Shown: piece by piece, positions 305-43,691 of the stretch
Layout of the letters: each line of letters begins with the position of its first letter
Position numbering within the stretch: position 1 is the stretch's first letter
Source: Patescibacteria group bacterium
Lineage (GTDB): Bacteria > Patescibacteriota > Minisyncoccia > UBA6257 > HR35
NCBI GenBank assembly: GCA_025060085.1
Contig: JANXCM010000002.1
Location: forward strand, 1 to 43,691
Direction: 5' to 3'
DNA: 43,691 nt
The notes under the pieces: model-generated
Seen by the model: only the letters and a program-made list of their open reading frames with translations
What the model was told of the DNA's origin: nothing
Database searches by the model: none
Position numbers and translations under genes: made by a program

Positions 305-2206
305 ATGAGTTACAAGGCAGAGGATATTCAAGTTTTAGAAGGAATTGAAGCTGTTAGAAAGAGGCCAGGAATGTATATAGGAAGCACAGGTAAAGATGGC
401 CTTCATCACTTAGTCTATGAAATTGTAGCTAATGCTGTTGATGAAAGTTTGGCTGGTTATGCTAAAAATATTGAGGTAAAAATATTAAAAAATAATAGAA
501 TTTCTATTTCTGATGATGGTCGAGGTATTCCTATTGATTTGCATTCTAAAACAAAAAAATCAGCACTGGAAACTGTTTTAACTTATCTTCATGCTGGTGG
601 TAAATTTTCTCAGAAAATTTATAAAGTTTCAGGTGGTTTACACGGAGTAGGTTTATCAGTGGTTAATGCCTTAAGTAAATATCTAAAAGCAGTTGTTTAT
701 CGAGAAGGTTATGAGTGGTCACAAGAATATGAAAGAGGAAAGCCTATTACTAGTCTTAAAAAAATTAGACCAACAAAAAAAACAGGGACAACGATTATTT
801 TTGAACCTGATCCTAAAATTTTTACTGAGATTAATTTTGATAAAAATATCATTTTGGACTATCTTCGTCATCAAAGTTATCTGACTCCAGGACTGAGAAT
901 TAATTTTTATGATGAGCGAGAAAATTTTTCCTATGGTTTTTATTTTGAGGGAGGTTTGATAAGTTTTTTAAATCATTTAACTAAATTTAAAAGACTTGTT
1001 AATAACCATCATCTTTATGGAAAAATATCAGAAGATGATAAGGAATTTGAATTTTGTTTTAATTATTCTGAAAGCTCAGATAGTAGAGAGCTATCTTTTA
1101 CTAATAATATTCTTAATCCTGAGGGGGGAACTCATCTTGTAGGTTTTAGGAATGCTTTATTAAAAATATTCAACGAAATAGGTAGAGTCCTAAATATTTT
1201 AAAAAATGGTAAAAATTTAATTACCGAAGATATTCGAGGAGGTCTTTGGTTAATAATTTCTTTGAAAATTCCCGAACCTCAATTTGAAGGACAAACAAAA
1301 TCAAAATTAGGCAATCCCGAAGTAAAAAGCTTTGTCGAAAGTCATGTTTTTAATTTTTTAAAAGAGTATTTTGGAAAATACCCTGACGAAGCAAAAGCCA
1401 TTTTAAACAGATTAATTATTAATCTCGAAGCTCGGGAAGCAGAGAAAACAGCTAAAGAAATAGTTTTTAAAAAAAGATTTTCAGTTTCTCTAATGCTTTC
1501 AGGAAAATTAGCTGATTGCTCTTCAAAGGATTTTTCAAAAAGAGAACTTTTTATTGTTGAGGGCGATAGTGCTGGAGGAAGTGCCAAACAAGCTCGAGAT
1601 AGAACTTTCCAGGCAGTTTTACCACTAAGAGGAAAAATTTTAAATGTCGAGAAATCAAATCTGGTTAAAATATTAAAATCAAAGGAAATTAAAGATCTTA
1701 TTGCTGCTTTAGGAACGGGGATAGGAAAAGATTTCAATCTCGAAAATTTGCGCTATTCAAAAATAATAATTGCTACTGATGCTGATTCTGATGGTAATCA
1801 TATTCGCACACTTTTACTTACTCTTTTTTATAGATTTTTTAGATCATTGCTTGAAAAAGGATATATTTATATAGCCCAACCACCTTTATATAAAATTCAA
1901 TTCGGAAAACAATTTTTTTATGCTTATAGTGATTCGGAAAGAGATAAATTAATTAAAGAAATTCAAAAAAAACAGACTAAAAATTATAATTTTGATATTC
2001 AAAGATATAAAGGGCTAGGAGAAATGAACCCAGAAGAATTATGGGAAACAACTATTAACCCTGAAAAAAGAGTATTAAAAAGGGTTACTATTGAAGATGC
2101 GGAAAGGGCTGATGAATTATTTTCTATTTTGATGGGTAGTGAAGTCGAACCAAGAAAAAAATTTATTGAAACCTATGCTCAAGAAGTTCAAGATCTTGAT
2201 ATCTGA
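305..2206 (+). CDS. gyrB: DNA gyrase subunit B
   Basis: 633 aa. N-terminal YKAEDIQVLEGIEAVRKRPGMYIGST, a GHKL ATPase region, Toprim motifs (ELFIVEGDSAGGSAKQARDR, IIATDADSDGNHI) and a C-terminal QRYKGLGEM motif. Confidence 0.97.
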   Translation: MSYKAEDIQVLEGIEAVRKRPGMYIGSTGKDGLHHLVYEIVANAVDESLAGYAKNIEVKILKNNRISISDDGRGIPIDLHSKTKKSALETVLTYLHAGGKFSQKIYKVSGGLHGVGLSVVNALSKYLKAVVYREGYEWSQEYERGKPITSLKKIRPTKKTGTTIIFEPDPKIFTEINFDKNIILDYLRHQSYLTPGLRINFYDERENFSYGFYFEGGLISFLNHLTKFKRLVNNHHLYGKISEDDKEFEFCFNYSESSDSRELSFTNNILNPEGGTHLVGFRNALLKIFNEIGRVLNILKNGKNLITEDIRGGLWLIISLKIPEPQFEGQTKSKLGNPEVKSFVESHVFNFLKEYFGKYPDEAKAILNRLIINLEAREAEKTAKEIVFKKRFSVSLMLSGKLADCSSKDFSKRELFIVEGDSAGGSAKQARDRTFQAVLPLRGKILNVEKSNLVKILKSKEIKDLIAALGTGIGKDFNLENLRYSKIIIATDADSDGNHIRTLLLTLFYRFFRSLLEKGYIYIAQPPLYKIQFGKQFFYAYSDSERDKLIKEIQKKQTKNYNFDIQRYKGLGEMNPEELWETTINPEKRVLKRVTIEDAERADELFSILMGSEVEPRKKFIETYAQEVQDLDI

Positions 2207-2747
2207 AAATTTTTTAATAATCTCAGCTCTTGGAATTTCCAGTATTTTCTTATACTTAACTTTTTTTAATTACTTTTTTATTATTTTCCTTTTAACTTCA
2301 CTTATTTTTTTTAATTTTTATTTTTTAAGAGGATTAAATTTTATTTTATTTTCTTTAGTTAGTCCTCTTCCTTTTTATTTTTTATTTCTTTTAATAGAAA
2401 TCAATCCGTTATTAATAATAATTATTTGGCTTATTTACTATTTTCTTTTATTAACTAATAATCAACTTTCTTTTTTCATTTTAGTTTTCTTAATTATTTT
2501 TAATATACTTATTTTTCTTGATCATTTTAACTTTTTTCTTATTTTCATCATTCTTATTTTTTTAATGCTATTGATCTTTTTTTTAATTTTTAAAAATAAT
2601 TTTTTTCAAAGTTTAATTAAAACTTTTATTTTTGCTCAGTTTTTTTGGATAAGTTATTTTTTACCAGTTCATTTCTATTTAAATATTTTCTTTCTCTTTT
2701 CCCTTTTTTTCTTTCTAATAAAAGTTAATTTTATTAATCAAGTTTAA
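2139..2747 (+). CDS. polytopic membrane protein of unknown function (start uncertain)
   Basis: Long Phe/Leu/Ile-rich ORF with several predicted TM segments, filling the gap between gyrB and the DksA-like gene. The listed start overlaps the gyrB 3' end by 68 nt, so the true start is probably further downstream. Confidence 0.4.
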   Translation: MKSNQEKNLLKPMLKKFKILISENFLIISALGISSIFLYLTFFNYFFIIFLLTSLIFFNFYFLRGLNFILFSLVSPLPFYFLFLLIEINPLLIIIIWLIYYFLLLTNNQLSFFILVFLIIFNILIFLDHFNFFLIFIILIFLMLLIFFLIFKNNFFQSLIKTFIFAQFFWISYFLPVHFYLNIFFLFSLFFFLIKVNFINQV

Positions 2748-2752
2748 TTTTG

Positions 2753-2761
2753 TGTTATAAT
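2753..2761 (+). promoter_or_regulatory. extended -10 promoter element TGTTATAAT
   Basis: Exact TGnTATAAT match ending 9 nt before ATG 2771. This implies a near-leaderless transcript for the DksA-like gene. Confidence 0.35.
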
Positions 2762-2770
2762 AGAAAAGTT

Positions 2771-3103
2771 ATGATTAATATTGAAGAAATTAAAAATAAA
2801 CTTTTAAAAGAAAAAGAAGAAATAATTTTTGTCCTAGAAGAATTAAAACGAGAGATGAATAATTTGAAGGAAAATCCTGAATATGAATTTTCGGCTGCTT
2901 CGGAAGCCTTTGAAGAAAAACAAGATATTCATATTAAAAAAGAATTTCTAGAGGAGAGATTAGAAGAAATTAATCGAGCTTTAGGAAAAATTGAAAATAA
3001 TACTTATGGAAGATGTTTAAAATGCGGTAAAGAAATTGAATCTGCGAGATTACAGATTGATCCTACTTTTGAATATTGTCGTGAACATTCTCATGATCAT
3101 TAA
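2771..3103 (+). CDS. DksA/TraR-family C4 zinc-finger protein
   Basis: Coiled-coil N-terminus followed by CLKCGKEIESARLQIDPTFEYCREH (CxxC...C), typical of DksA/TraR. The track start (TTG 2750) lies inside the promoter-like TGTTATAAT, so ATG 2771 is preferred. Confidence 0.75.
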   Translation: MINIEEIKNKLLKEKEEIIFVLEELKREMNNLKENPEYEFSAASEAFEEKQDIHIKKEFLEERLEEINRALGKIENNTYGRCLKCGKEIESARLQIDPTFEYCREHSHDH

Positions 3104-3112
3104 ATTTAAAAA

Positions 3113-3553
3113 TTATTTCCTATAATAAAGAATAATTTTTTCAACCTCAGGAGAACTAAATTCTTCACAAGTGGCTAAATAAACACGATATTTAAAATAA
3201 CGAATATTTTTGTGAGGATTATCACTCTGGAATGAATATATTTTAAAAGGGGGATGATCAATATAATCATTGAAAAAACTTTTACCATAAAATAGCCATG
3301 GACCGTTATAATCTAAAGAACTAGCTAGTTGAAACCCTACAAAATGTTTATCCGTTTTTTCTCCTTGCCATTTTAATTTAGTAATTTGATATTCATCACC
3401 TAAATCAAAAACAACTGATTCTAAATATCCATAGTTAAGAGCATTATCCAACTGGCAAACATTTTGAGAAGAACTAAGATTATTTGGTAAAAAAAATAAA
3501 CTACTAATTGCTAAACCTAAAAAAATTTTTAATTTTTTGTAACCAATTTTCAT
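3113..3553 (-). CDS. secreted hypothetical protein
   Basis: N-terminal signal-like MKIGYKKLKIFLGLAISSLFFL. I recognise no family motif. It overlaps the 3' end of the FtsA-like gene by 50 nt. Confidence 0.5.
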   Translation of the reverse strand: MKIGYKKLKIFLGLAISSLFFLPNNLSSSQNVCQLDNALNYGYLESVVFDLGDEYQITKLKWQGEKTDKHFVGFQLASSLDYNGPWLFYGKSFFNDYIDHPPFKIYSFQSDNPHKNIRYFKYRVYLATCEEFSSPEVEKIILYYRK

Positions 3554-4643
3554 TTTTATAATCTAACTCTTTAGCTATTAAAGCACAACCAACTGAAGCT
3601 GAATATTTCAAAAGATCATCTTGTTTTTCAAATAAACCTAAATCATCTTTTGAAAGTTTCAGTTGGAAATCAAAAAAATTTTTTATTAAGTTATCTAAAT
3701 GGATAATTTTTGCAAAACTACCTATAACAATTATTCCTGCTGGTAAGCGATAATTGTTTTTAATTTCTTTCAGATAAGATCTTAAATTATTTTTTTCAAA
3801 ATATTCTTTTATTTTTTTTTCAATAAATTTTTTAATTTTTAATTTCTTTTTCCCTTCTTTAGCTAATTGATTATTGAAAAAAGCAATTTTTAATTTTTCA
3901 GCTTCTTCGATGTCAATTTTTAAATTAATAGCTAAATCTTCTGTTAATTTTTCCCCTCCAAATTTATAAGACTTATAGTTAATTAATTTTCCATATTGAA
4001 AAAAAGAGATAGTTGTATTTTCTGAGCCGAAATCAATTAAACCTACTCCTATCTCTTTATCTTTTTTTGATAAACAAACCTTACTGGCAGCATAAAAAGA
4101 AGGAATAAAATTTATTTTATTAATTTCTAATCTTTTAAAAACATTTCTGAATTTATCTAAAATAGATTTATGACAGGTGATAAAGAAAACTTCAACATCT
4201 AATCTGCGTCCAGTAAATCCCAACGGATCTCTTATTTCTTGGTTACCATCCAAAATAAATTTTATTGGTTCTTCAACTAAAATTTCTTGATTATTAATTA
4301 AAAGAGAAGTTCGAGCGGTTTTAATCGCTCTTTCAAGATCTTCTTCTTGAACATTACCCTCGAAAATAGAATGGCCTTTCTGAAAATAATTTTGAAAATG
4401 AGGAAAATTGAATGAAATAATAAGATTATCAATTTTAGCAATATTAAAACTATTTAAAATATTAGAAAAAAGATTTTCAAGAGAATGAAAGAGAGCATCT
4501 TGATCTAAAATTTCACCCTCTCTTAGATTCTCATTTCTAATAGAGTGGTTATAGCTAATTAATTTACCGAGAGGATCCTCTTCCAAAACGCTTAATTTAA
4601 TTTCATAATGGCCGAAATCTAAACCAAAATAAATATTTTTCAT
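3504..4643 (-). CDS. ftsA: actin-like ATPase, probably cell-division protein FtsA
   Basis: ASKHA-fold phosphate motifs (YFGLDFGHYEIK, GLIDFGSENTTISFF). The C-terminal amphipathic NWLQKIKNFFRF resembles the FtsA membrane-targeting helix. PilM cannot be fully excluded. Confidence 0.65.
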   Translation of the reverse strand: MKNIYFGLDFGHYEIKLSVLEEDPLGKLISYNHSIRNENLREGEILDQDALFHSLENLFSNILNSFNIAKIDNLIISFNFPHFQNYFQKGHSIFEGNVQEEDLERAIKTARTSLLINNQEILVEEPIKFILDGNQEIRDPLGFTGRRLDVEVFFITCHKSILDKFRNVFKRLEINKINFIPSFYAASKVCLSKKDKEIGVGLIDFGSENTTISFFQYGKLINYKSYKFGGEKLTEDLAINLKIDIEEAEKLKIAFFNNQLAKEGKKKLKIKKFIEKKIKEYFEKNNLRSYLKEIKNNYRLPAGIIVIGSFAKIIHLDNLIKNFFDFQLKLSKDDLGLFEKQDDLLKYSASVGCALIAKELDYKNENWLQKIKNFFRFSN

Positions 4644-4912
4644 CCTTCATATTTAATTTCGTTAATATAACGTTTGGCCATTTCTAAAGCTTTTTCTAAA
4701 CTCCAACCTTCTTTTAATTTTTTTTCTACAAATGATTTAATTTTTAAGCGATAAATTCGATATTCAAATTTTCTTCGCTCATTCCATTTTCTAGTTTTAA
4801 ACATTCTTTTTTTAACTTCATTGACTAAACCACTTCTTTGATAGCGAGAACTAAATCTTTTCAATAACTGAAGATTATTTTCATTTTTCACTTTTTTAGC
4901 TTTAATTCTCAT
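4640..4912 (-). CDS. rpsU: 30S ribosomal protein S21 with a C-terminal extension
   Basis: LLKRFSSRYQRSGLVNEVKKRMFKTRKWNERRK aligns by eye with E. coli S21 [33 protein letters not shown]. Confidence 0.65.
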   Translation of the reverse strand: MRIKAKKVKNENNLQLLKRFSSRYQRSGLVNEVKKRMFKTRKWNERRKFEYRIYRLKIKSFVEKKLKEGWSLEKALEMAKRYINEIKYEG

Positions 4913-5315
4913 CTTTGAGTAAATTATAAATCTCCTCTACAGATTGTGAGGGAGGATTATAAACAACTGAATGTATCGAACCGCCATTATCATTAGGAAA
5001 TCGAGGAATGACGTGAAAGTGAAGATGATCAATTAAACGACCGGCTAATTTTCCCTCATTAATTCCAATAGTAAAATCAGATGTTTTTAATTTTTTTGAA
5101 ATTTTAAAGATAGCCTCCTTTATAATTCTTATTAAATCTTGATATAACTCTTCTGATAAATCTGTAAAACTAACTAAATGTTTTTTAGGGATAATCAAAG
5201 AATGACCAGGAGAATGAGGTTTAATGTCTAAAAAACTTAAGAAATTTTCATTTTCTAATAGGATAAAAGCTTTTAACTCTTTATTAGCTATTTGGCAAAA
5301 TAGGCATTTACTCAT
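4902..5315 (-). CDS. HIT-family (histidine triad) nucleotide hydrolase/transferase
   Basis: N-terminal CLFCQI motif and histidine triad DHLHFHVIP. Confidence 0.9.
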   Translation of the reverse strand: MSKCLFCQIANKELKAFILLENENFLSFLDIKPHSPGHSLIIPKKHLVSFTDLSEELYQDLIRIIKEAIFKISKKLKTSDFTIGINEGKLAGRLIDHLHFHVIPRFPNDNGGSIHSVVYNPPSQSVEEIYNLLKDEN

Positions 5316-11644: not shown

Positions 11645-13168
<1,524 letters not shown>

Positions 13169-17534: not shown

Positions 17535-17691
17535 ATATTAAAAGTATATATAAAGAAATTTGAAAGAATTTTATATTAACTAAATTTAAAAAATAGTATA
17601 TCATAATTAAATTTTTATTTTAGTAAGTATTTATTTTTTTTACTCATAAGATTAAAAATAAAAATAAAATATAATTTTTATACTAAATTAA

Positions 17692-17721
17692 GAAAAGAGC
17701 TTCGTTTTAAAAGCTCTTTTC
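17692..17721 (+). terminator. 11-bp perfect hairpin, possible terminator in the intergenic region
   Basis: GAAAAGAGCTT-cgttttaa-AAGCTCTTTTC. A-rich before and T-rich after, so it could act in either direction. Confidence 0.4.
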
Positions 17722-17872
17722 TTAGAAGATAATTAAATAAAGAAAAGGAGGAGCCGTAAATAATTTACTTTTGCCCCAATCTCTTGCTTAATTTCTATTA
17801 TAAAAAATTTTTTCCAAAAACAAAATAACCAAAAATAAATTTTTTTTAAATTGCTTATAATTTTACTTACTG

Positions 17873-40032: not shown

Positions 40033-40103
40033 TTGCCGGGTCGTCTAATGGTAGGACACAAGGCTCTGGACCTTGGAATCTTGGTTCGAATCCAAGCCCG
40101 GCA
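40033..40103 (+). tRNA. tRNA-Gln (CUG)
   Basis: Hand-folded: TGCCGGG/CCCGGCA acceptor (U1-A72, G73 as in bacterial tRNA-Gln), anticodon arm CAAGG-CTCTGGA-CCTTG, T arm CTTGG-TTCGAAT-CCAAG. Confidence 0.85.
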
Positions 40104-40109
40104 GAAAAA

Positions 40110-40180
40110 ATGCGGGGTGGTGTAACGGTAGCACAGCGGCCTTTGGAGCCGTTAGTCTTGGTTCGAATCCAAGCCCCGCA
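40110..40180 (+). tRNA. tRNA-Gln (UUG)
   Basis: Hand-folded: TGCGGGG/CCCCGCA acceptor (U1-A72, G73), anticodon arm GCGGC-CTTTGGA-GCCGT, and the same T arm as its neighbour. It is followed by CCA (40181-40183), the only tRNA here with a templated CCA. Confidence 0.85.
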
Positions 40181-40358
40181 GCCAATTAATAATGAGTATA
40201 TTTATTTTTTTCAAAAGATATAAATAATCTCTATATAAAAAATTATTTAACTATCTTTCTTTTAATCCTTTTATTTTTTATTTATTTAAATCAAATTTAT
40301 ATTTTTTAATATTTTTTTTCAATTATTTTTTTAAAACTCTATTTTATTAGCTAAATTA

Positions 40359-40386
40359 TTGACAAAAAATTAAGTTGTGCTAAAAT
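40359..40386 (+). promoter_or_regulatory. near-consensus promoter TTGACA-N16-TGcTAAAAT
   Basis: TTGACA at 40359-40364, a 16-nt spacer ending in TG (40378-40379), TAAAAT at 40381-40386, and ATG at 40417. Confidence 0.6.
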
Positions 40387-40398
40387 TTTATTATTGGC

Positions 40399-40416
40399 AC
40401 TTTACTATAGTAAAGT
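40399..40416. promoter_or_regulatory. 18-bp perfect palindrome, candidate operator (or leader hairpin) abutting the start codon
   Basis: ACTTTACTA|TAGTAAAGT is exactly self-complementary. It lies between the -10 element and the ATG of the TrpR/YerC-like gene. Confidence 0.5.
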
Positions 40417-40737
40417 ATGAAAAATAAAAAGAATTTTTATCATTGGGTAAATAAAGAAATTGATGACCTTTTTAGTGTTATTTTGATGTTAGAAAATTTA
40501 GATGAAGCCCGAAGATTTTTTAGAGATTTATTAACTAAAAAAGAGATTATTGAATTTGCCAAAAGATGGAAAGCGGTTCAAATGTTAGCTCAAGGAATAA
40601 CCTATAAAGAAATAGAGAAAAAAACAAAAATGAGTTCAACAACCATCGCTCGGATTAATAGATGGTTAAGATCAGAGTATGGTGGTTATCGGCTTATTTT
40701 GAATAAGCTTAACAAATTCAAAGATAAGATTAATTAA
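40417..40737 (+). CDS. TrpR-like / YerC-YecD family helix-turn-helix protein
   Basis: About 100 aa. LLTKKEIIEFAKRWKAVQMLAQGITYKEIEKKTKMSSTTIARINRWL matches the Trp-repressor-fold YerC/YecD pattern. Confidence 0.75.
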   Translation: MKNKKNFYHWVNKEIDDLFSVILMLENLDEARRFFRDLLTKKEIIEFAKRWKAVQMLAQGITYKEIEKKTKMSSTTIARINRWLRSEYGGYRLILNKLNKFKDKIN

Positions 40738-40758
40738 ATTATTTTACTAAAAATAAAA

Positions 40759-41310
40759 ATGGCAGGAAGAAAAATTCAAATTGGAGTGGTAGGAGCAACT
40801 GCCGATCTTAAGTATTCTAAAAAATTGGTTAAATTAGCTGAAGAAATTGGATATTGGATTGCTAAGAAAAATGCTGTTCTAATTTTTGGAGCAGAAAAAG
40901 ATTATGATTCTTTATCTACCGCTGCTTGTCGTGGAGCTAAAAAAAATAATGGATTAACCGTTGGTATAACTTATGGTAAGGGATTAAATGTTTACGATAA
41001 TAAGAATGTTGATATAGTGATTGCTACAGGAATAGAAAGAGGAGGAGGAAGAGAATTTATTTTTATCCTTAGTTGTGATGCGGTTATTGGTATTAATGGG
41101 GGTTCGGGGACCTTAACAGAATTTGGTATTACTTATCAAGCTAATATTCCAATTGTTGTTTTAAAAAATAGTGGTGGATGGAGCGATAAATTAATAAATA
41201 CTTATCTGGATGAAAGAAAGAGAATAAAAATCGAATCTGCTAATTTACCTAAAGAAGCCGTTGAAAAAGCAATAAAATTAGCTCAAAGAAAAATTAAAAA
41301 AGAAAAATAA
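40759..41310 (+). CDS. LOG/TIGR00725-like (SLOG superfamily) Rossmann-fold nucleotide-binding protein
   Basis: IGVVGA..., AACRGAKKNNGLTVGI, GIERGGGRE, and GINGGSGTLTEF (the PGGxGTxxE-type motif). It starts 21 nt after the upstream gene. Confidence 0.7.
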   Translation: MAGRKIQIGVVGATADLKYSKKLVKLAEEIGYWIAKKNAVLIFGAEKDYDSLSTAACRGAKKNNGLTVGITYGKGLNVYDNKNVDIVIATGIERGGGREFIFILSCDAVIGINGGSGTLTEFGITYQANIPIVVLKNSGGWSDKLINTYLDERKRIKIESANLPKEAVEKAIKLAQRKIKKEK

Positions 41311-41414
41311 ACTTCATATTTAAATCAAAATTATTTCTCTAATAATGGGAAGAGATTGATTGTGATTAATTAAATTTTTAATTTTGATATTTTTCTAAAT
41401 TTTCACACTCAATC

Positions 41415-41435
41415 CCTTCTCATTTATTGAGAAGG
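41415..41435 (+). other. 8-bp hairpin at the left edge of the GC-richer island
   Basis: CCTTCTCA-tttat-TGAGAAGG. No U-tract follows, so it is not a classical terminator. Confidence 0.5.
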
Positions 41436-41446
41436 AAGCACACTAT

Positions 41447-41455
41447 AAGGAGGTG
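41447..41455 (+). promoter_or_regulatory. strong Shine-Dalgarno sequence AAGGAGGTG
   Basis: Perfect complement to a canonical anti-SD, placed 6 nt before GTG 41462. No comparable element precedes any resident intergenic start codon in the window. Confidence 0.6.
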
Positions 41456-41461
41456 AGAATT

Positions 41462-41557
41462 GTGTATATCGTTTCAGAAGACATTGTTATTTTGTTTAAA
41501 GAATGGGCAAAAAGAAACGGATTTCTTTTGCCCCTCGTTTATTTTTTGAAGCATTGA
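41462..41557 (+). other. 31-codon GTG-initiated frame overlapping the PRTase ATG out of frame (upstream ORF, or the displaced original N-terminus)
   Basis: VYIVSEDIVILFKEWAKRNGFLLPLVYFLKH, stop at 41555-41557. It overlaps the 41503 ORF by 55 nt. Confidence 0.4.
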
Positions 41558-42354
41558 GGAAAAAATTTGCGAGCTTCGTCTCGCAAATTTTTCCCAATTT
41601 TGTTTTCCTAAAAGAGGGAGACCTCTTGAGGGATCTCTCTTCTATACTAACTACTATCCAAAGAGAAGTTATAGTTTCTTTGGATAGAGTGTATACTCCT
41701 CTTCTTAAGGATGAGATAGGGGAAGTGTTTTATCTTGATGTTACCCGCCTCGTTAATGAAGTGGGTGAAAGTAGAGGTTATGGAGCTCGTTGGGGAACTC
41801 CGTCTATCGAGGAGCAAATAGAAAAATTACCTTCTCTTCTCAAGAAGGAGAGAAAAGATGTCGTTCTTGTTGACGATGTGATTTTTTCTGGTTCCCTAGT
41901 TGAAAGACTCGTAGGAGTTTTTTTAAATGAGGGAGTCAGAGTTGATTGCGTTGTTGCCGCCATCGGAATAGGTGGCGGCATTGAAAGAGTTAAAAGATTA
42001 GGGGTAAAAGTTCTTTGCGCACACACCTTTGACAGTGTTGTCGATCAAGTGTGCGAGAGGGATTTTTATCCCGGTACACCATTTTGTGGTCGCACTCTCG
42101 AAAGTGCAACTGAAAATATAGGTGTTCCTTATCTACTTCCTTGGGGGAAACCCCATAAGTGGGCTTCCATCCCGAGGGATAAGGAAAAGGAATTTTCCAT
42201 TTTTTGTATCGAGCAAACACTTAACTTGTTTGAGGCTATTGAAAAGGCCTCAGGTAGGGAAGTGTTATGCTCAGATTTAGAAAGGAGAACGATTGGTATG
42301 CTTCCCGAAGAAAGAGTAGTTGACTTTCTTCGGGCTAACCTGACGAGGTTGTGA
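41503..42354 (+). CDS. phosphoribosyltransferase-like protein (PRPP-binding motif), compositionally foreign
   Basis: KDVVLVDDVIFSGSLVERL is a type I PRTase PRPP loop. G+C is about 41% by hand count, against about 28% for the neighbours. The N-terminus is uncertain (see the upstream GTG frame). Confidence 0.7.
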   Translation: MGKKKRISFAPRLFFEALRKKFASFVSQIFPNFVFLKEGDLLRDLSSILTTIQREVIVSLDRVYTPLLKDEIGEVFYLDVTRLVNEVGESRGYGARWGTPSIEEQIEKLPSLLKKERKDVVLVDDVIFSGSLVERLVGVFLNEGVRVDCVVAAIGIGGGIERVKRLGVKVLCAHTFDSVVDQVCERDFYPGTPFCGRTLESATENIGVPYLLPWGKPHKWASIPRDKEKEFSIFCIEQTLNLFEAIEKASGREVLCSDLERRTIGMLPEERVVDFLRANLTRL

Positions 42355-42378
42355 ACCCGTCAAATTTTTAAATTTTTT

Positions 42379-42416
42379 GAGCCGATAAGTTTTCAACTGT
42401 CGGCTCTTTTTTATTT
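42379..42416 (+). terminator. rho-independent terminator
   Basis: GAGCCGA...TCGGCTC stem followed by TTTTTTATTT, 25 nt after the PRTase stop. Confidence 0.7.
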
Positions 42417-42514
42417 GAAAAAAATAAGATTAAAATTTTTCAGATTAAAATAATGTATAAATAGAATTTTTTATTTTTTTAAATTTAAAAATATGATATT
42501 ATGTTATTATTTTT

Positions 42515-43519
42515 ATGAAAACTATAGGTTTTTGTGGTTTGCCTAATAGTGGTAAATCGACACTTTTAAAACTATTAACTAAAACAGAAACATTAATTGC
42601 TAATTATCCTTTTACAACTATTTCTCCTAAATTAGCTAGAGGATTTTTTATTTCTAATAATTTACTTCAACTTCATTCTTTAACCAAAACTCCTGAAATT
42701 AGACCTGCTTATTTAAATTTTTTAGATGTTCCGGGTTTAATTAGAGGTTCACACAAAGGATTAGGATTAGGCAATGAATTTTTAAGCTATTTAAGACAAA
42801 GTGATATTATTTTAGAAATTATTCGCAATTTTAAAAGAGAAGATGTAATTCATAGCGAAGGCGAAGTAGATCCAGAAAGAGATATTTTGTTGATTGAAGA
42901 AGAAATATTACAGTCAGAAAAAAAAATTATTGAGGAAAATTTACAAAAAATTAAACGTCAACCAGCTAAAAAAGATTTAGCTGAAAAATTTATATTTATT
43001 CTAGATAATCTTCAGCCATTTAAAAGATTCCCCGAATTAAAAAAAGATTTAAAAGAATACAATCTTCTCCTTACTAAGGACTGGTTTTTAATCTTTAATG
43101 GTGATTTAAAAATAGATAAAAAAAATTTTGAAAATCTATGTTTTAAATCTATCTATCAATTAGACTTTCAATTTGAATTAGAACTTCAAGAAAATAGAGA
43201 GCTTCAAAAAGAATATCCATCTCAAGTTAATGATTTATTAAATCAGATTAAAAAAGATATTGATTTAATAGAATTTTTTACCTTTACAGATGAAATTACC
43301 CAATCTTGGTTAATAGAAAGGGATAACTATTTAATTAAATCAGCAGAACTAATTCACTCCGATTTTGCTAAAAAATTTAAATCTGCTGAGGTTATTAATA
43401 TTAAACAATTTTTGATTCATAAAAAAAATTGGTCTGAACTTAAAAACTTAGGTCTATTAAAGCAAGTAGGTAGAGATTATTGTATTGAAGAAGGTGATAT
43501 TATTAGAATTATTATTTAG
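42515..43519 (+). CDS. ychF: Obg-like ribosome-binding ATPase YchF
   Basis: GFCGLPNSGKSTL (G1), NYPFTTISP, DVPGLIRGSHKGLGLGNEFL (G3 and YchF signature), and a C-terminal TGS-like domain. Confidence 0.9.
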   Translation: MKTIGFCGLPNSGKSTLLKLLTKTETLIANYPFTTISPKLARGFFISNNLLQLHSLTKTPEIRPAYLNFLDVPGLIRGSHKGLGLGNEFLSYLRQSDIILEIIRNFKREDVIHSEGEVDPERDILLIEEEILQSEKKIIEENLQKIKRQPAKKDLAEKFIFILDNLQPFKRFPELKKDLKEYNLLLTKDWFLIFNGDLKIDKKNFENLCFKSIYQLDFQFELELQENRELQKEYPSQVNDLLNQIKKDIDLIEFFTFTDEITQSWLIERDNYLIKSAELIHSDFAKKFKSAEVINIKQFLIHKKNWSELKNLGLLKQVGRDYCIEEGDIIRIII

Positions 43520-43593
43520 TTAGTAAATTAATAATTTTTGATGAATAAACTTTGAAAATATTCAACTCAGTCTTACTAGCAATAATTTTTACT

Positions 43594-43691
43594 CTAAGGT
43601 TGATAATAAACATTTAGATTAATTTTTCTTACTATACCTAAATAATTTTTAGCTCTAAATTCAAATTTATTTATTCCTGGTTTTAAAATTG
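43594..43691 (-). CDS. 3' end of an unidentified minus-strand gene running out of the window
   Basis: The minus-strand frame is open from the window edge: ...ILKPGINKFEFRAKNYLGIVRKINLNVYYQP, stop at 43594-43596. It is too short to classify. Confidence 0.3.
   Translation of the reverse strand, partial: ILKPGINKFEFRAKNYLGIVRKINLNVYYQP

Follow-up and report, generated by a model that had tools for sequence, protein, structure and literature searches.

The GC-rich kilobase near the right end of the window (the whole stretch of 43,691 nt of Patescibacteria DNA analysed here, from a very AT-rich genome of the candidate phyla radiation) is a single cistron of a PRTase-like family, with its own Shine-Dalgarno (SD) sequence and its own terminator, and a deletion within it cuts the first 24 codons off the remainder of the gene. 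We infer that this copy is a recent pseudogene. We further hold, with moderate confidence, that it reached its present position by xenologous replacement of the PRTase cistron from another lineage, and that the replacement is now a fresh pseudogene. The locus contains the following features.

40033-40184 (+): tRNA-Gln(CTG) and tRNA-Gln(TTG), the left edge of a variable slot (ARAGORN, Rfam)
40359-40386 (+): promoter-like TTGACA-16-TAAAAT ahead of the gene cluster (consensus scan alone; 11 of 12 matches, with TG)
40417-40737 (+): YerC/YecD (HisR-type) TrpR-family regulator gene of native composition (PF01371, E = 2.8e-20; TIGR02531, 76.4 bits against a cut-off of 42.2)
40759-41310 (+): SLOG cluster-4 / TIGR00725-like gene of native composition (PF18306, E = 1.4e-31; GC3 0.136)
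41335-41445 (+): decayed remnant of the family's His leader-peptide attenuator (leader alignment, covariance model, fold)
41415-41435 (+): 8-bp hairpin, attenuator segment 2 paired with downstream segment 4 (fold -12.3 kcal/mol, z = -5.0; leader alignment)
41447-41455 (+): SD sequence AAGGAGGTG, 6 nt ahead of GTG 41462
42379-42416 (+): intrinsic terminator GAGCCGA..TCGGCTC followed by T6 (hairpin 42379-42406 plus U-run; fold -15.1 kcal/mol, z = -4.6)
42515-43519 (+): ychF, native, the right edge of the slot (Pfam; 69-73% identical to ychF of relatives, with the same flanking synteny)

Composition and position of the cistron

The original prediction of a GC-rich island of about 1 kb was confirmed by sliding-window GC and codon-usage analysis, and the composition is not uniform. 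Windows of 300 nt spanning 41500-42399 have a GC content of 0.39-0.45, against 0.20-0.33 in the flanks on both sides; the only other stretch above 0.38 in the 43.7-kb window is the 16S gene. The ORF of 283 aa called within the island (41503-42354) has 41.8% GC and GC1/2/3 values of 0.53/0.38/0.35, compared with a mean of 26.8% and values of 0.37/0.27/0.16 for the 43 other ORFs of the window (GC3 standard deviation 0.027, maximum 0.243). Scored with the window's own codon table, its codon-usage log-likelihood lies at z = -7.2 relative to 42 other ORFs, and the departure is even along its entire length, while the two upstream genes are unremarkable (YerC-like -0.8, SLOG 0.0). The PRTase segment is atypical in bases and in codons and its borders are sharp, as would be the case for a horizontally acquired segment.

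By gene order, the PRTase-like gene nevertheless is in its family's canonical place, behind a YerC/HisR-like gene, a SLOG gene and a leader, and does not look like a random insertion. A SLOG gene adjoins the PRTase-like gene in 67 of 80 homologous loci and a YerC-like gene does so in 33; at one further locus (L094) the YerC-like and SLOG genes are present and the PRTase is missing. The regulator resembles the HisR / YerC-YecD histidine repressors, scoring above the TIGR02531 cut-off and finding its best PDB matches in 3frw, 3g1c and 3kor, of which 3g1c is the structure of E. eligens HisR (PMC9413887). Histidine binding by this regulator is putative, and no operator was identified here.

The slot itself is variable. 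The closest relatives found (L087, L089 and L091; proteins 69-86% identical, GC 26-29%) carry the same tRNA-Gln pair ahead of ychF, and between tRNA-Gln(TTG) and ychF have a NUDIX gene, nothing, or an ORF of 536 aa; the whole three-gene cluster is absent from the site in all three, which stand at about 70-78% protein identity. For closer relatives, a metagenome scan returned SLOG genes of at most 75% identity and a SLOG protein search at most 77%, and exact-match look-ups of the SLOG gene and of the PRTase-like ORF gave no matches. L093 and L094 are not close relatives. The suggestion that homologs at the same locus would speak against acquisition has a divided answer: the synteny exists in distant genomes, but the close relatives have other content there.

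The family is uncharacterised and Patescibacteria-wide (285-305 aa; 124 protein-cluster matches, at least 174 GTDB species), and every homologue recovered came from a Patescibacteria-type genome. The window's sequence matches the best intact homologue at E = 2e-62 and, once its frame is repaired, aligns over the full length with 20 invariant columns in common; the likeness runs from end to end and includes the N-terminal YVVSxDI..W..P..FF..LR and C-terminal CERDFYPG / WASIP blocks. As judged from structure prediction, the family is like the type I PRTases (APRT, OPRT, XPRT; PF00156) in its PRPP loop and core fold, and phosphoribosyl transfer is the predicted activity: the loop VVLVDDVIFSG aligns with the PRPP loops of 4twb and 1wd5, and the predicted fold matches OPRT, APRT and XPRT over about 150 residues (Foldseek probability 1.0, E ~2e-5). 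Unlike type I PRTases, the family has about 100 extra C-terminal residues with an invariant D..CERDFYPG..GR..PY..P.G.P..WASIP block, for which no named match was found, and it scores under the Pfam and NCBIfam cut-offs (PF00156, 17.5 bits against 26.3; PF24390, 15.7 against 27; NCBIfam likewise below). The sole PADLOC match to a defence system was PRTase_III-A at E = 0.0034, and a literature search on 'PRTase-CE' found no papers.

Leader, start signals and the broken frame

In relatives, the leader ahead of the PRTase-like gene is, on the pattern of its sequence, a His-codon leader-peptide attenuator that would control this gene. A short ORF bearing a run of 2-4 His codons (in a crude scan, 27 of 74 relatives gave HH or HHH peptides) stands ahead of three helices that exclude one another, an anti-antiterminator, an antiterminator and a terminator, and of a U-run; the terminator is 96.4% and the antiterminator 89.7% paired, with compensatory changes in both. 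The resemblance to the hisL attenuator of Enterobacteria lies in the His-codon ORF and the alternative helices, and similar His attenuators are found in some Firmicutes (PMC9413887). Unlike hisL, the family leader precedes a PRTase-like gene and not a his biosynthesis operon, its target often stands with GNAT, PfkB or HAD genes and with HisRS nearby, and it is of different sequence and without an Rfam model. Rfam searches of the window and 12 loci at the gathering threshold, and of two leaders at an E-value threshold, returned only tRNA/rRNA and chance matches; the His leader had no match in Rfam 15, and the searched literature neither described it nor yielded any paper on anti-SD loss or His attenuation in CPR.

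The copy of this leader in the window is decayed. Segment 1 (GGGAAGAGATTGATTGTGA) at 41347-65 and segment 2 (TCACACTCAATCCCTTCTCA) at 41403-22 can be recognised, as can the tail of the leader ORF (gaa gag att gat tgt gat taa, 41349-69), but the His codons are gone, two in-frame TAA codons (41340-45) preceding the conserved tail. An 11-nt terminator 3' arm and the U-run are deleted, only the antiterminator-type helix is left, and the covariance model scores this copy at 14.7 bits, where other loci reach 55-134. The 8-bp hairpin, first read as the opening of the island, is instead a remnant of this conserved attenuator.

The start signals described in the original prediction, namely the SD-GTG pair and the overlapping, out-of-frame ATG 41503, are real on sequence and folds, as are the hairpin and the terminator, and the reported lack of an anti-SD was borne out: the 16S 3' end reads ...GGUGGCGAUGGACCAAUUCUAUUU, and CCUCC is absent. 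The SD at the head of the gene is therefore probably of no use in the present host, and no SD was found upstream of the other genes of the window. Across the family, SD-like sites occur in 39 of 50 copies in hosts with a GC content of at least 0.345 and in 4 of 11 in AT-rich hosts. The frame opened by GTG 41462 ends at a TGA (41555-57), so that ribosomes from the old GTG would stop after 31 codons; ATG 41503 is out of frame with it and has a TAA at 41497-99. The elements of the gene itself are these.

41462-41533 (+): real beginning of the PRTase-like gene, its codons 1-24 (MYIVSEDIVILFKEWAKRNGFLLP) lying in the upstream frame (family residues and HMM gain)
41531-41554 (+): interval of the -1 frame change, one base missing (HMM junction scan and residue fit)
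41533-42354 (+): remainder of the gene, read in the same frame as the 283-aa ORF whose call starts at ATG 41503 (PRPP loop VVLVDDVIFSG and invariant C-terminal block)
41542-41595 (+): look-alike of a frameshift cassette, T_TTT_TTG (41542-48), a 9-nt spacer ending in TGA and a 16-bp stem-loop at 41558-95 (sequence, folds)
42260-42266 (+): two positions at which a second assembly differs, by A>G (Glu to Gly) and by T>G, which turns TTA into TGA and puts a stop at codon 255 (assembly alignment)

Homology of the ORF and of frame-repaired versions, proposed at the outset as the way to the true N-terminus, located it in the GTG 41462 frame. Homologues begin ..PYVVSADIxLLLxxWAxxNGFxLPxxxFFxxLR; the GTG frame yields (M)YIVSEDIVILFKEWAKRNGFLLP, and the 283-aa ORF carries on with PRLFFEALRKKF. 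The upstream frame matches the near-invariant family residues Y2, V4, S5, D7, L11, W15 and P24, and with it the family-HMM score goes up by 32-37 bits, from 297 to 329-334. The repaired protein was modelled with pLDDT 96 and pTM 0.91, residues 1-20 at pLDDT 97-98. Since the upstream frame is the conserved N-terminus of a single-frame family (the copy in the window is interrupted, and the 80 other loci inspected all have one frame), the gene carries a 1-nt deletion. The predicted split of the N-terminus from the body by a 1-nt indel is accordingly upheld by homologues, HMM and model; the tracts proposed for it fared unequally. The A5 tract (41509-41513) is excluded because the change of frame comes only after the Pro codon at 41531-33, the upstream frame matching the family for six codons further. 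The junction scan gives 333.9 bits at 41533, 331.8 at 41542/45, 329-330 at 41548-54 and at most 325 before 41524, and at the junction 'PRL' suits the polar/Pro columns of the family and 'LVY' does not. The C4 tract at 41531-34 is therefore the best-fitting site of the lost base, with the T6 tract at 41542-47 a possible alternative.

The frameshift is real, being common to an independent Logan assembly, SRR15826900 (L001), which differs by 3 SNPs across 2218 nt, has the same C4 and T6 tracts, and also contains the junction of the GC-rich segment with ychF. Two of its changes fall in the PRTase-like gene (E>G, TTA>TGA), against one synonymous change in ychF; the protein (P0001) terminates ..SGRGV, the nonsense variant being known from a single short-read contig. 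Elsewhere in the family, L012, one of the 80 loci, contains a stop codon in frame. The repaired protein from the window retains every one of the 20 invariant family residues, which fits a very recent break and, equally, continued function via some rescue.

Origin and fate of the copy

That the coding sequence is foreign is favoured by its composition, its codon usage and the SD that it has kept, while its partner genes and the leader look native. In the xenologous replacement that we favour, an older cluster would have been resident in the variable tRNA-Gln/ychF slot, and its PRTase cistron would have been displaced by a copy from a lineage of Patescibacteria that uses SD sequences and is moderately richer in GC. 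The incoming copy would then have lost a single base, most probably through shortening of C5 to C4 at 41531-34. The His attenuator upstream has decayed as well, and the sister strain has gained a nonsense mutation. Such an orthologue of foreign composition in a resident operon position resembles xenologous displacement, and a single-base frameshift with all catalytic motifs still intact resembles the fresh pseudogenes of reduced genomes. What sets the locus in the window apart is that it yielded no recombination scars: searches for flanking direct or inverted repeats found only A/T-rich low-complexity matches. Nor were signs of mobility found, whether an integrase or a viral carrier, no family member being present in IMG/VR.

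The original claim of recent horizontal acquisition from an SD-using donor is thus supported by the foreign composition, codons and SD, but the segment is not a free-standing island and no donor can be named. A donor search in 5.8 billion proteins gave a best homologue of 46-49% identity, the sister strain excepted, and a nearest-neighbour analysis of host GC returned no donor GC signal (rho = 0.13, p = 0.22). The similarity ranks of the SLOG and PRTase genes agree broadly (rho = 0.58), so that no incongruence between the two is demonstrable.

It is also conceivable, if unlikely, that the PRTase gene was not imported separately: the whole YerC-SLOG-PRTase cluster may have moved together, or a vertically inherited gene may have been kept GC-rich by a force intrinsic to the family, for example biased gene conversion, or selection on codons in a gene that starvation induces. 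The whole cluster does occupy a slot that varies among relatives, and the top SLOG matches, 76-77% identical, include none on the relatives' large contigs. PRTase GC3 also exceeds SLOG GC3 by a median of 0.07 over 65 loci (p = 3e-8), and by at least 0.15 in 14; GC plateaus confined to the coding sequence recur in L064, L029, L020, L033 and L014, some of whose hosts are too GC-rich for a richer donor. The GC3 excess of such one-gene plateaus reaches at least +0.15 in 9 of 79 loci, and is -0.15 or lower in 1 of 79. Since plateaus occur even in GC-rich hosts, a gene-intrinsic cause of high GC3 may exist. Against both versions, however, the codon usage of the SLOG and YerC-like genes is exactly native beside a PRTase gene at -7.2, and the variable loop of the leader is pure A/T. 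Moreover, the gene is fully AT-adapted and mostly SD-less in all other AT-rich hosts, its GC3 lying between -0.10 and +0.07 relative to host in 13 of them, so that an intrinsic force is not acting in comparable genomes.

The sequence downstream of the break invites the further suggestion that the copy in the window is still expressed, via programmed or leaky -1 ribosomal frameshifting on U_UUU_UUG by ribosomes from GTG 41462, giving a full-length product with ..LLPLVYFLEALR.. at the junction. We regard this as improbable. The heptamer is a canonical X_XXY_YYZ in the correct frame, just before the 0-frame stop, with its 16-bp stem beginning 9 nt on, within the 5-9 nt looked for, and all invariant residues are kept. 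The hairpin at 41558-95, a strong structure within the coding sequence that the original prediction did not list, has 13 perfect pairs (41561-92; -21.6 kcal/mol, z = -4.25); the window contains two perfect hairpins of at least 13 bp where 0.17 are expected, and among 75 family members this one is the strongest at its position (z = -5.2 against a mean of -1.0). In heptamer, spacer and stem-loop before a 0-frame stop, the arrangement recalls the -1 cassettes of dnaX and the IS3 family. It departs from them in that the frameshift is conserved in no relative, the elements are largely by-products of conserved codons, and the break is placed ahead of the heptamer. A conserved programmed site would call for frameshifted relatives, of which there are none in the family, and frameshifting is not a family trait because all 80 other loci are single-frame. 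The T6 corresponds to conserved Phe-Phe codons of the true frame, and the outer A/T stem follows from conserved K-x-F and I-F-P codons, the hairpin of L043 being similar. Measured to the perfect stem, the spacer is 12 nt; family profile and residue types favour a break in the C-run; and the sister strain, the sole near-identical copy, has a stop codon downstream. As a family-conserved structure the hairpin was rejected, homologue hairpins averaging z = -1.0.

Still less probable, in our view, is that the 283-aa ORF from ATG 41503 is a functional remodelled enzyme, with the short GTG frame as an upstream ORF that delivers ribosomes to it. The ATG stands in an A/T-rich context typical of an SD-less host and the ORF is intact to the normal C-terminus of the family, but its product would be without residues 1-24, and with them six positions conserved at 90% or more and the first beta-strand and helix (modelled at pLDDT 97-98), and no family member starts at that position. 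The coupling upstream ORF originally offered as an alternative does not survive: what the short frame encodes is the conserved N-terminus of the PRTase-like gene itself and no separate uORF. An artefact, whether a chimeric assembly of two organisms or a homopolymer indel error, is very improbable: the window is probably a metagenome-assembled contig, and its left junction (41311-41474) is supported by one assembly alone because the second begins at 41474, but an independent assembly, with SNPs at other places, has exactly the same right junction and frameshift region, the candidate tracts are just 4 and 6 nt, the leader segments flanking the composition change are complementary to one another, and a chimera would require two junctions 1 kb apart.

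Histidine and the SLOG/PRTase pair

For the window itself, the value of these results is mainly one of annotation: the 283-aa 'gene' is a frameshifted copy with its real start at SD-GTG 41462, and should be called a pseudogene and not an intact PRTase. The frameshifted, probably foreign copy is ordinary gene turnover, and would provide a clean natural example of a donor-type Shine-Dalgarno brought into a host with no anti-SD left in its 16S.

Of wider but indirect value are the relatives, in which, across many Patescibacteria, the SLOG/PRTase pair is accompanied by a HisR-type regulator and a conserved leader-peptide attenuator with His codons. We tentatively suggest that regulator, SLOG protein, His attenuator and PRTase-like enzyme, often with HisRS adjoining, may form an undescribed, Patescibacteria-specific pathway induced by histidine starvation, whose PRTase would use an imidazole or histidine-related substrate or serve His-tRNA supply. 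The gene would be unusually prone to replacement, and the host of the window would be in the course of losing the pathway soon after one such event, with no more than a leaky -1 rescue. The attenuator in relatives implies that classical ribosome-coupled attenuation may operate in Patescibacteria, and the association as a whole gives two of the group's more widespread 'hypothetical' genes their first functional lead, namely a response to histidine or His-tRNA.

Composition and layout of the PRTase-like cistron

The window is a fragment of Patescibacteria type with about 27% GC overall, in which 300-nt windows reach 39–45% GC across 41500–42400, versus 20–33% in the flanks; only the 16S gene is equally GC-rich elsewhere. 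The GC3 of the 283-aa ORF is 0.349, against a mean of 0.159 for the other 43 ORFs (sd 0.027, maximum 0.243), and its per-codon log-likelihood, computed with the window's own codon table, lies 7.2 sd under the mean of 42 other ORFs, uniformly along its length. The codon usage of the two upstream genes is unremarkable (z = −0.8 and 0.0). Measurement thus bears out the GC-rich island of the original prediction in both composition and codon usage, and the structural details described for it were all found:

11645–13168, minus strand: 16S gene
40417–40737: TrpR-family gene, a YerC/YecD (HisR-type) member
41415–41435: 8-bp hairpin
41462: GTG start, with the SD AAGGAGGTG 6 nt upstream; stop of this frame at 41555–41557
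41503–42354: 283-aa ORF, its ATG out of frame with GTG 41462 and preceded by TAA
3' of the PRTase-like gene: terminator GAGCCGA/TCGGCTC with U-run

The 16S 3' end (window 11645–11700, minus strand) reads ...GGUGGCGAUGGACCAAUUCUAUUU and, as had been claimed, is free of the CCUCC anti-Shine-Dalgarno; no SD was found upstream of native genes in the window, where upstream regions are A/T-rich. An 11-bp perfect hairpin, CCCGAAGAAAG..CTTTCTTCGGG, lies within the 3' end of the PRTase CDS (42304–42334; −15.9 kcal/mol, z = −3.65).

Against PRTase profiles, the 283-aa ORF gives only sub-threshold matches. Its relatives comprise 124 protein clusters and at least 174 GTDB species, and all 80 family loci inspected belong to Patescibacteria-type genomes (some in mislabelled bins), each encoding 285–305 aa in a single frame with the N-terminus ..PYVVSADIxLLLxxWAxxNGFxLPxxxFFxxLRxxF. 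The frame-repaired window protein is modelled at pLDDT 96 and pTM 0.91, with a core resembling APRT, OPRT and XPRT structures across ~150 residues; the C-terminal third, with its invariant CERDFYPG and WASIP blocks, has no named match. The window protein also carries a 7-residue insertion (TPLLKDEIGEV; window 41710–41740, repaired residues ~79–89) absent from 39 aligned homologues.

A histidine-linked operon and its leader

When the neighbour genes of the 80 family loci were clustered, a TrpR-family gene was present in 33 and an SLOG cluster-4/TIGR00725-like gene in 67, with the PRTase-like gene next; other common neighbours are HisRS (30 loci), HutH-like lyase (11 loci), PfkB, GNAT, HAD and nucleoside-hydrolase genes. 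The window order—TrpR-family, SLOG, PRTase-like—is identical to this arrangement, and the GC-rich gene therefore occupies the family's canonical position rather than a random insertion point. The YerC/YecD family has been identified as the histidine repressor HisR (Ashniev et al., PMC9413887).

The SLOG–PRTase intergenic space is conserved at the DNA level in distant lineages, where it contains the coding sequence of a short His-run peptide, as in these relatives:

L002: LTFVIHHHSQLFLKEIGCG
L010: MKNRNRQYQYSHHHNLLFQEEIGCG
L068: ..NHHHHASSGVI

A crude scan found such peptides in 27 of 74 loci, and the His runs of the leader ORF extend from HH to HHHH. Segments 3' of the peptide can pair in alternative ways, as 0:1, 1:2 or 2:3, and the 2:3 hairpin carries a U-run. 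Pairing reaches 89.7% in the 1:2 (antiterminator) helix and 96.4% in the 2:3 (terminator) helix, where compensatory changes occur at three and two pairs, respectively; both outscore all slid and shuffled controls in cells paired and covariation score. A covariance model seeded with 21 leaders has coding-strand hits (E < 1e-3) in 42 of the 86 other Patescibacteria loci, half of them (21) outside the seed. Examples, from loci ranging from L002 to L084, are:

L003:5840–5972: attenuator
L029:5838–5970: attenuator
L030:2693–2829: attenuator

The element precedes the PRTase-like gene directly, or GNAT/PfkB/HAD genes followed by it. Rfam holds no match to the leader, and a literature search found no description of it. 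The leader in relatives has the make-up of a classical His leader-peptide attenuator, so that expression of the family is predicted to respond to His-tRNA shortage. Together, the YerC/YecD gene, the attenuator and the HisRS and HutH-like neighbours elsewhere tie the SLOG/PRTase cluster to histidine.

The window copy of the leader (41337–41440) is a remnant: a peptide tail, EEIDCD*, after two stop codons, with no His codons, a variable loop purely of A/T, a terminator arm shortened by 11 nt and no U-run. It scores 14.7 bits with the covariance model, versus 55–134 bits at other loci. The 8-bp hairpin is leader segment 2 paired with a downstream segment 4.

Origin of the GC-rich cistron

We somewhat favor xenologous replacement of the PRTase cistron followed by a recent frameshift: the cistron would have been imported separately into a resident operon, displacing an earlier copy, and would have lost a base later. 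Several observations count for separate import. Only the PRTase cistron is a codon-usage outlier; the adjoining leader, A/T-rich and decayed, looks long-resident; in 13 other AT-rich hosts, GC3 of the family gene deviates from the host value by only −0.10 to +0.07; and an SD-like site occurs in 4 of 11 AT-rich hosts, compared with 39 of the 50 copies from GC-richer hosts. Against import, no donor was identified among the homologues, and no insertion scars or vectors were found. Of the horizontal acquisition originally proposed, the foreign composition stands, but free insertion does not, given the canonical operon place.

It is clearly less probable that the cluster arrived as a single unit or that the gene has an intrinsic GC bias. 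A GC3 excess of at least +0.15 occurs in 9 of 79 loci (~11%), versus a deficit of −0.15 or beyond in one, and one-gene plateaus confined to the PRTase CDS (L064, L063, L039, L033, L029, L020, L014) include copies in already GC-rich hosts; transfer alone is therefore insufficient as an explanation. The lone outlying cistron and the host-like copies in AT-rich genomes nevertheless argue against this reading.

The wider locus varies. The nearest genomes found with ychF are 69–73% identical, and further searches found no closer relative. Three relatives (26–29% GC) match the window order of transketolase, ATP-cone, FAD oxidase, tRNA-Gln(CTG), tRNA-Gln(TTG), slot, ychF, HTH and FtsK, and their slots between tRNA-Gln(TTG) and ychF hold a NUDIX gene, nothing and a 536-aa reverse-strand ORF, one each. 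The slots compared are:

L087:7509–8000
L089:7970–8000
L091:5879–8000

The window slot (~40185–42514) holds the entire YerC–SLOG–PRTase cluster. In L087, PIN and HicAB toxin-antitoxin genes lie between the transketolase gene pair (2128–4918), and the C-terminal transketolase gene has a ~150-aa insertion with a PDDEXK_3 domain.

Loss of the reading frame

Compared with relatives' N-termini, the upstream GTG frame encodes (M)YIVSEDIVILFKEWAKRNGFLLP and the large ORF carries on ..PRLFFEALRKKF; because the family N-terminus is split between them, one base must be missing from the gene, which changes the frame by −1. The first strand and helix, derived from the upstream frame, are modelled at pLDDT 97–98. 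Every possible junction was scored against a profile made from homologues alone:

Junction scores against the family profile
ORF alone: 297 bits
Junction before 41524: ≤325 bits
Junction 41533: 333.9 bits
Junction 41542/45: 331.8 bits
Junction 41548–54: 329–330 bits

The Pro at 41531–33 is conserved in at least 90% of the family, and 'PRL' suits the polar/Pro columns after it, where 'LVY' is unsuited; the missing base therefore most probably sits in the C-run 41531–34. The predicted 1-nt indel is thus upheld and its site refined: of the other tracts, T6 is a weaker candidate, and the junction scores and the conserved Pro exclude A5.

Rescue by −1 frameshifting is doubtful. A heptamer in the upstream frame (T_TTT_TTG, 41542–48), a 9-nt spacer ending in TGA and a 16-bp stem-loop (13 perfect pairs, −21.6 kcal/mol, z = −4.25) are all present, and perfect hairpins this long number two in the window against 0.17 expected. 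However, the T6 tract simply spells conserved Phe-Phe codons in the true frame, the stem's A/T base arises from conserved K-x-F and I-F-P codons, a similar hairpin forms in L043, a relative's locus (the 5-bp GC core alone being unique to the window copy), and no other family member has the frameshift. The second long hairpin (17689–17724, 14 bp, TAAGAAAAGAGCTT..AAGCTCTTTTCTTA), ~150 nt past a tRNA-Ala/tRNA-Arg pair, is probably a terminator.

A functional 283-aa product, without the strand and helix encoded upstream, is more doubtful still. An artefact is very improbable: an independent Logan contig of a sister strain (L001; SRR15826900), spanning 41474–43691 with three SNPs, carries identical C4 and T6 tracts, and in it the GC-rich segment joins ychF at the same point. 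The PRTase-like gene has two of these SNPs (Glu to Gly; TTA to TGA at codon 255) and ychF the third, which is synonymous; on tiny counts, this pattern points towards relaxed selection. The window protein keeps all 20 invariant family residues, which argues against long-standing decay; the break must therefore be recent, or the gene partly rescued. Other signs of gene loss occur in the family: in L012:6001–6840 a stop codon interrupts the conserved SLDRVY motif in frame (TLD*VY), and L094:6553–8100 has YerC-like and SLOG genes with the PRTase absent.

The segment is better viewed as a broken and probably replaced cistron, lying within a conserved histidine-linked operon, than as an island. For the window itself this amounts to ordinary gene turnover; of more interest are two by-products, the attenuator and the link between the SLOG/PRTase pair and histidine.
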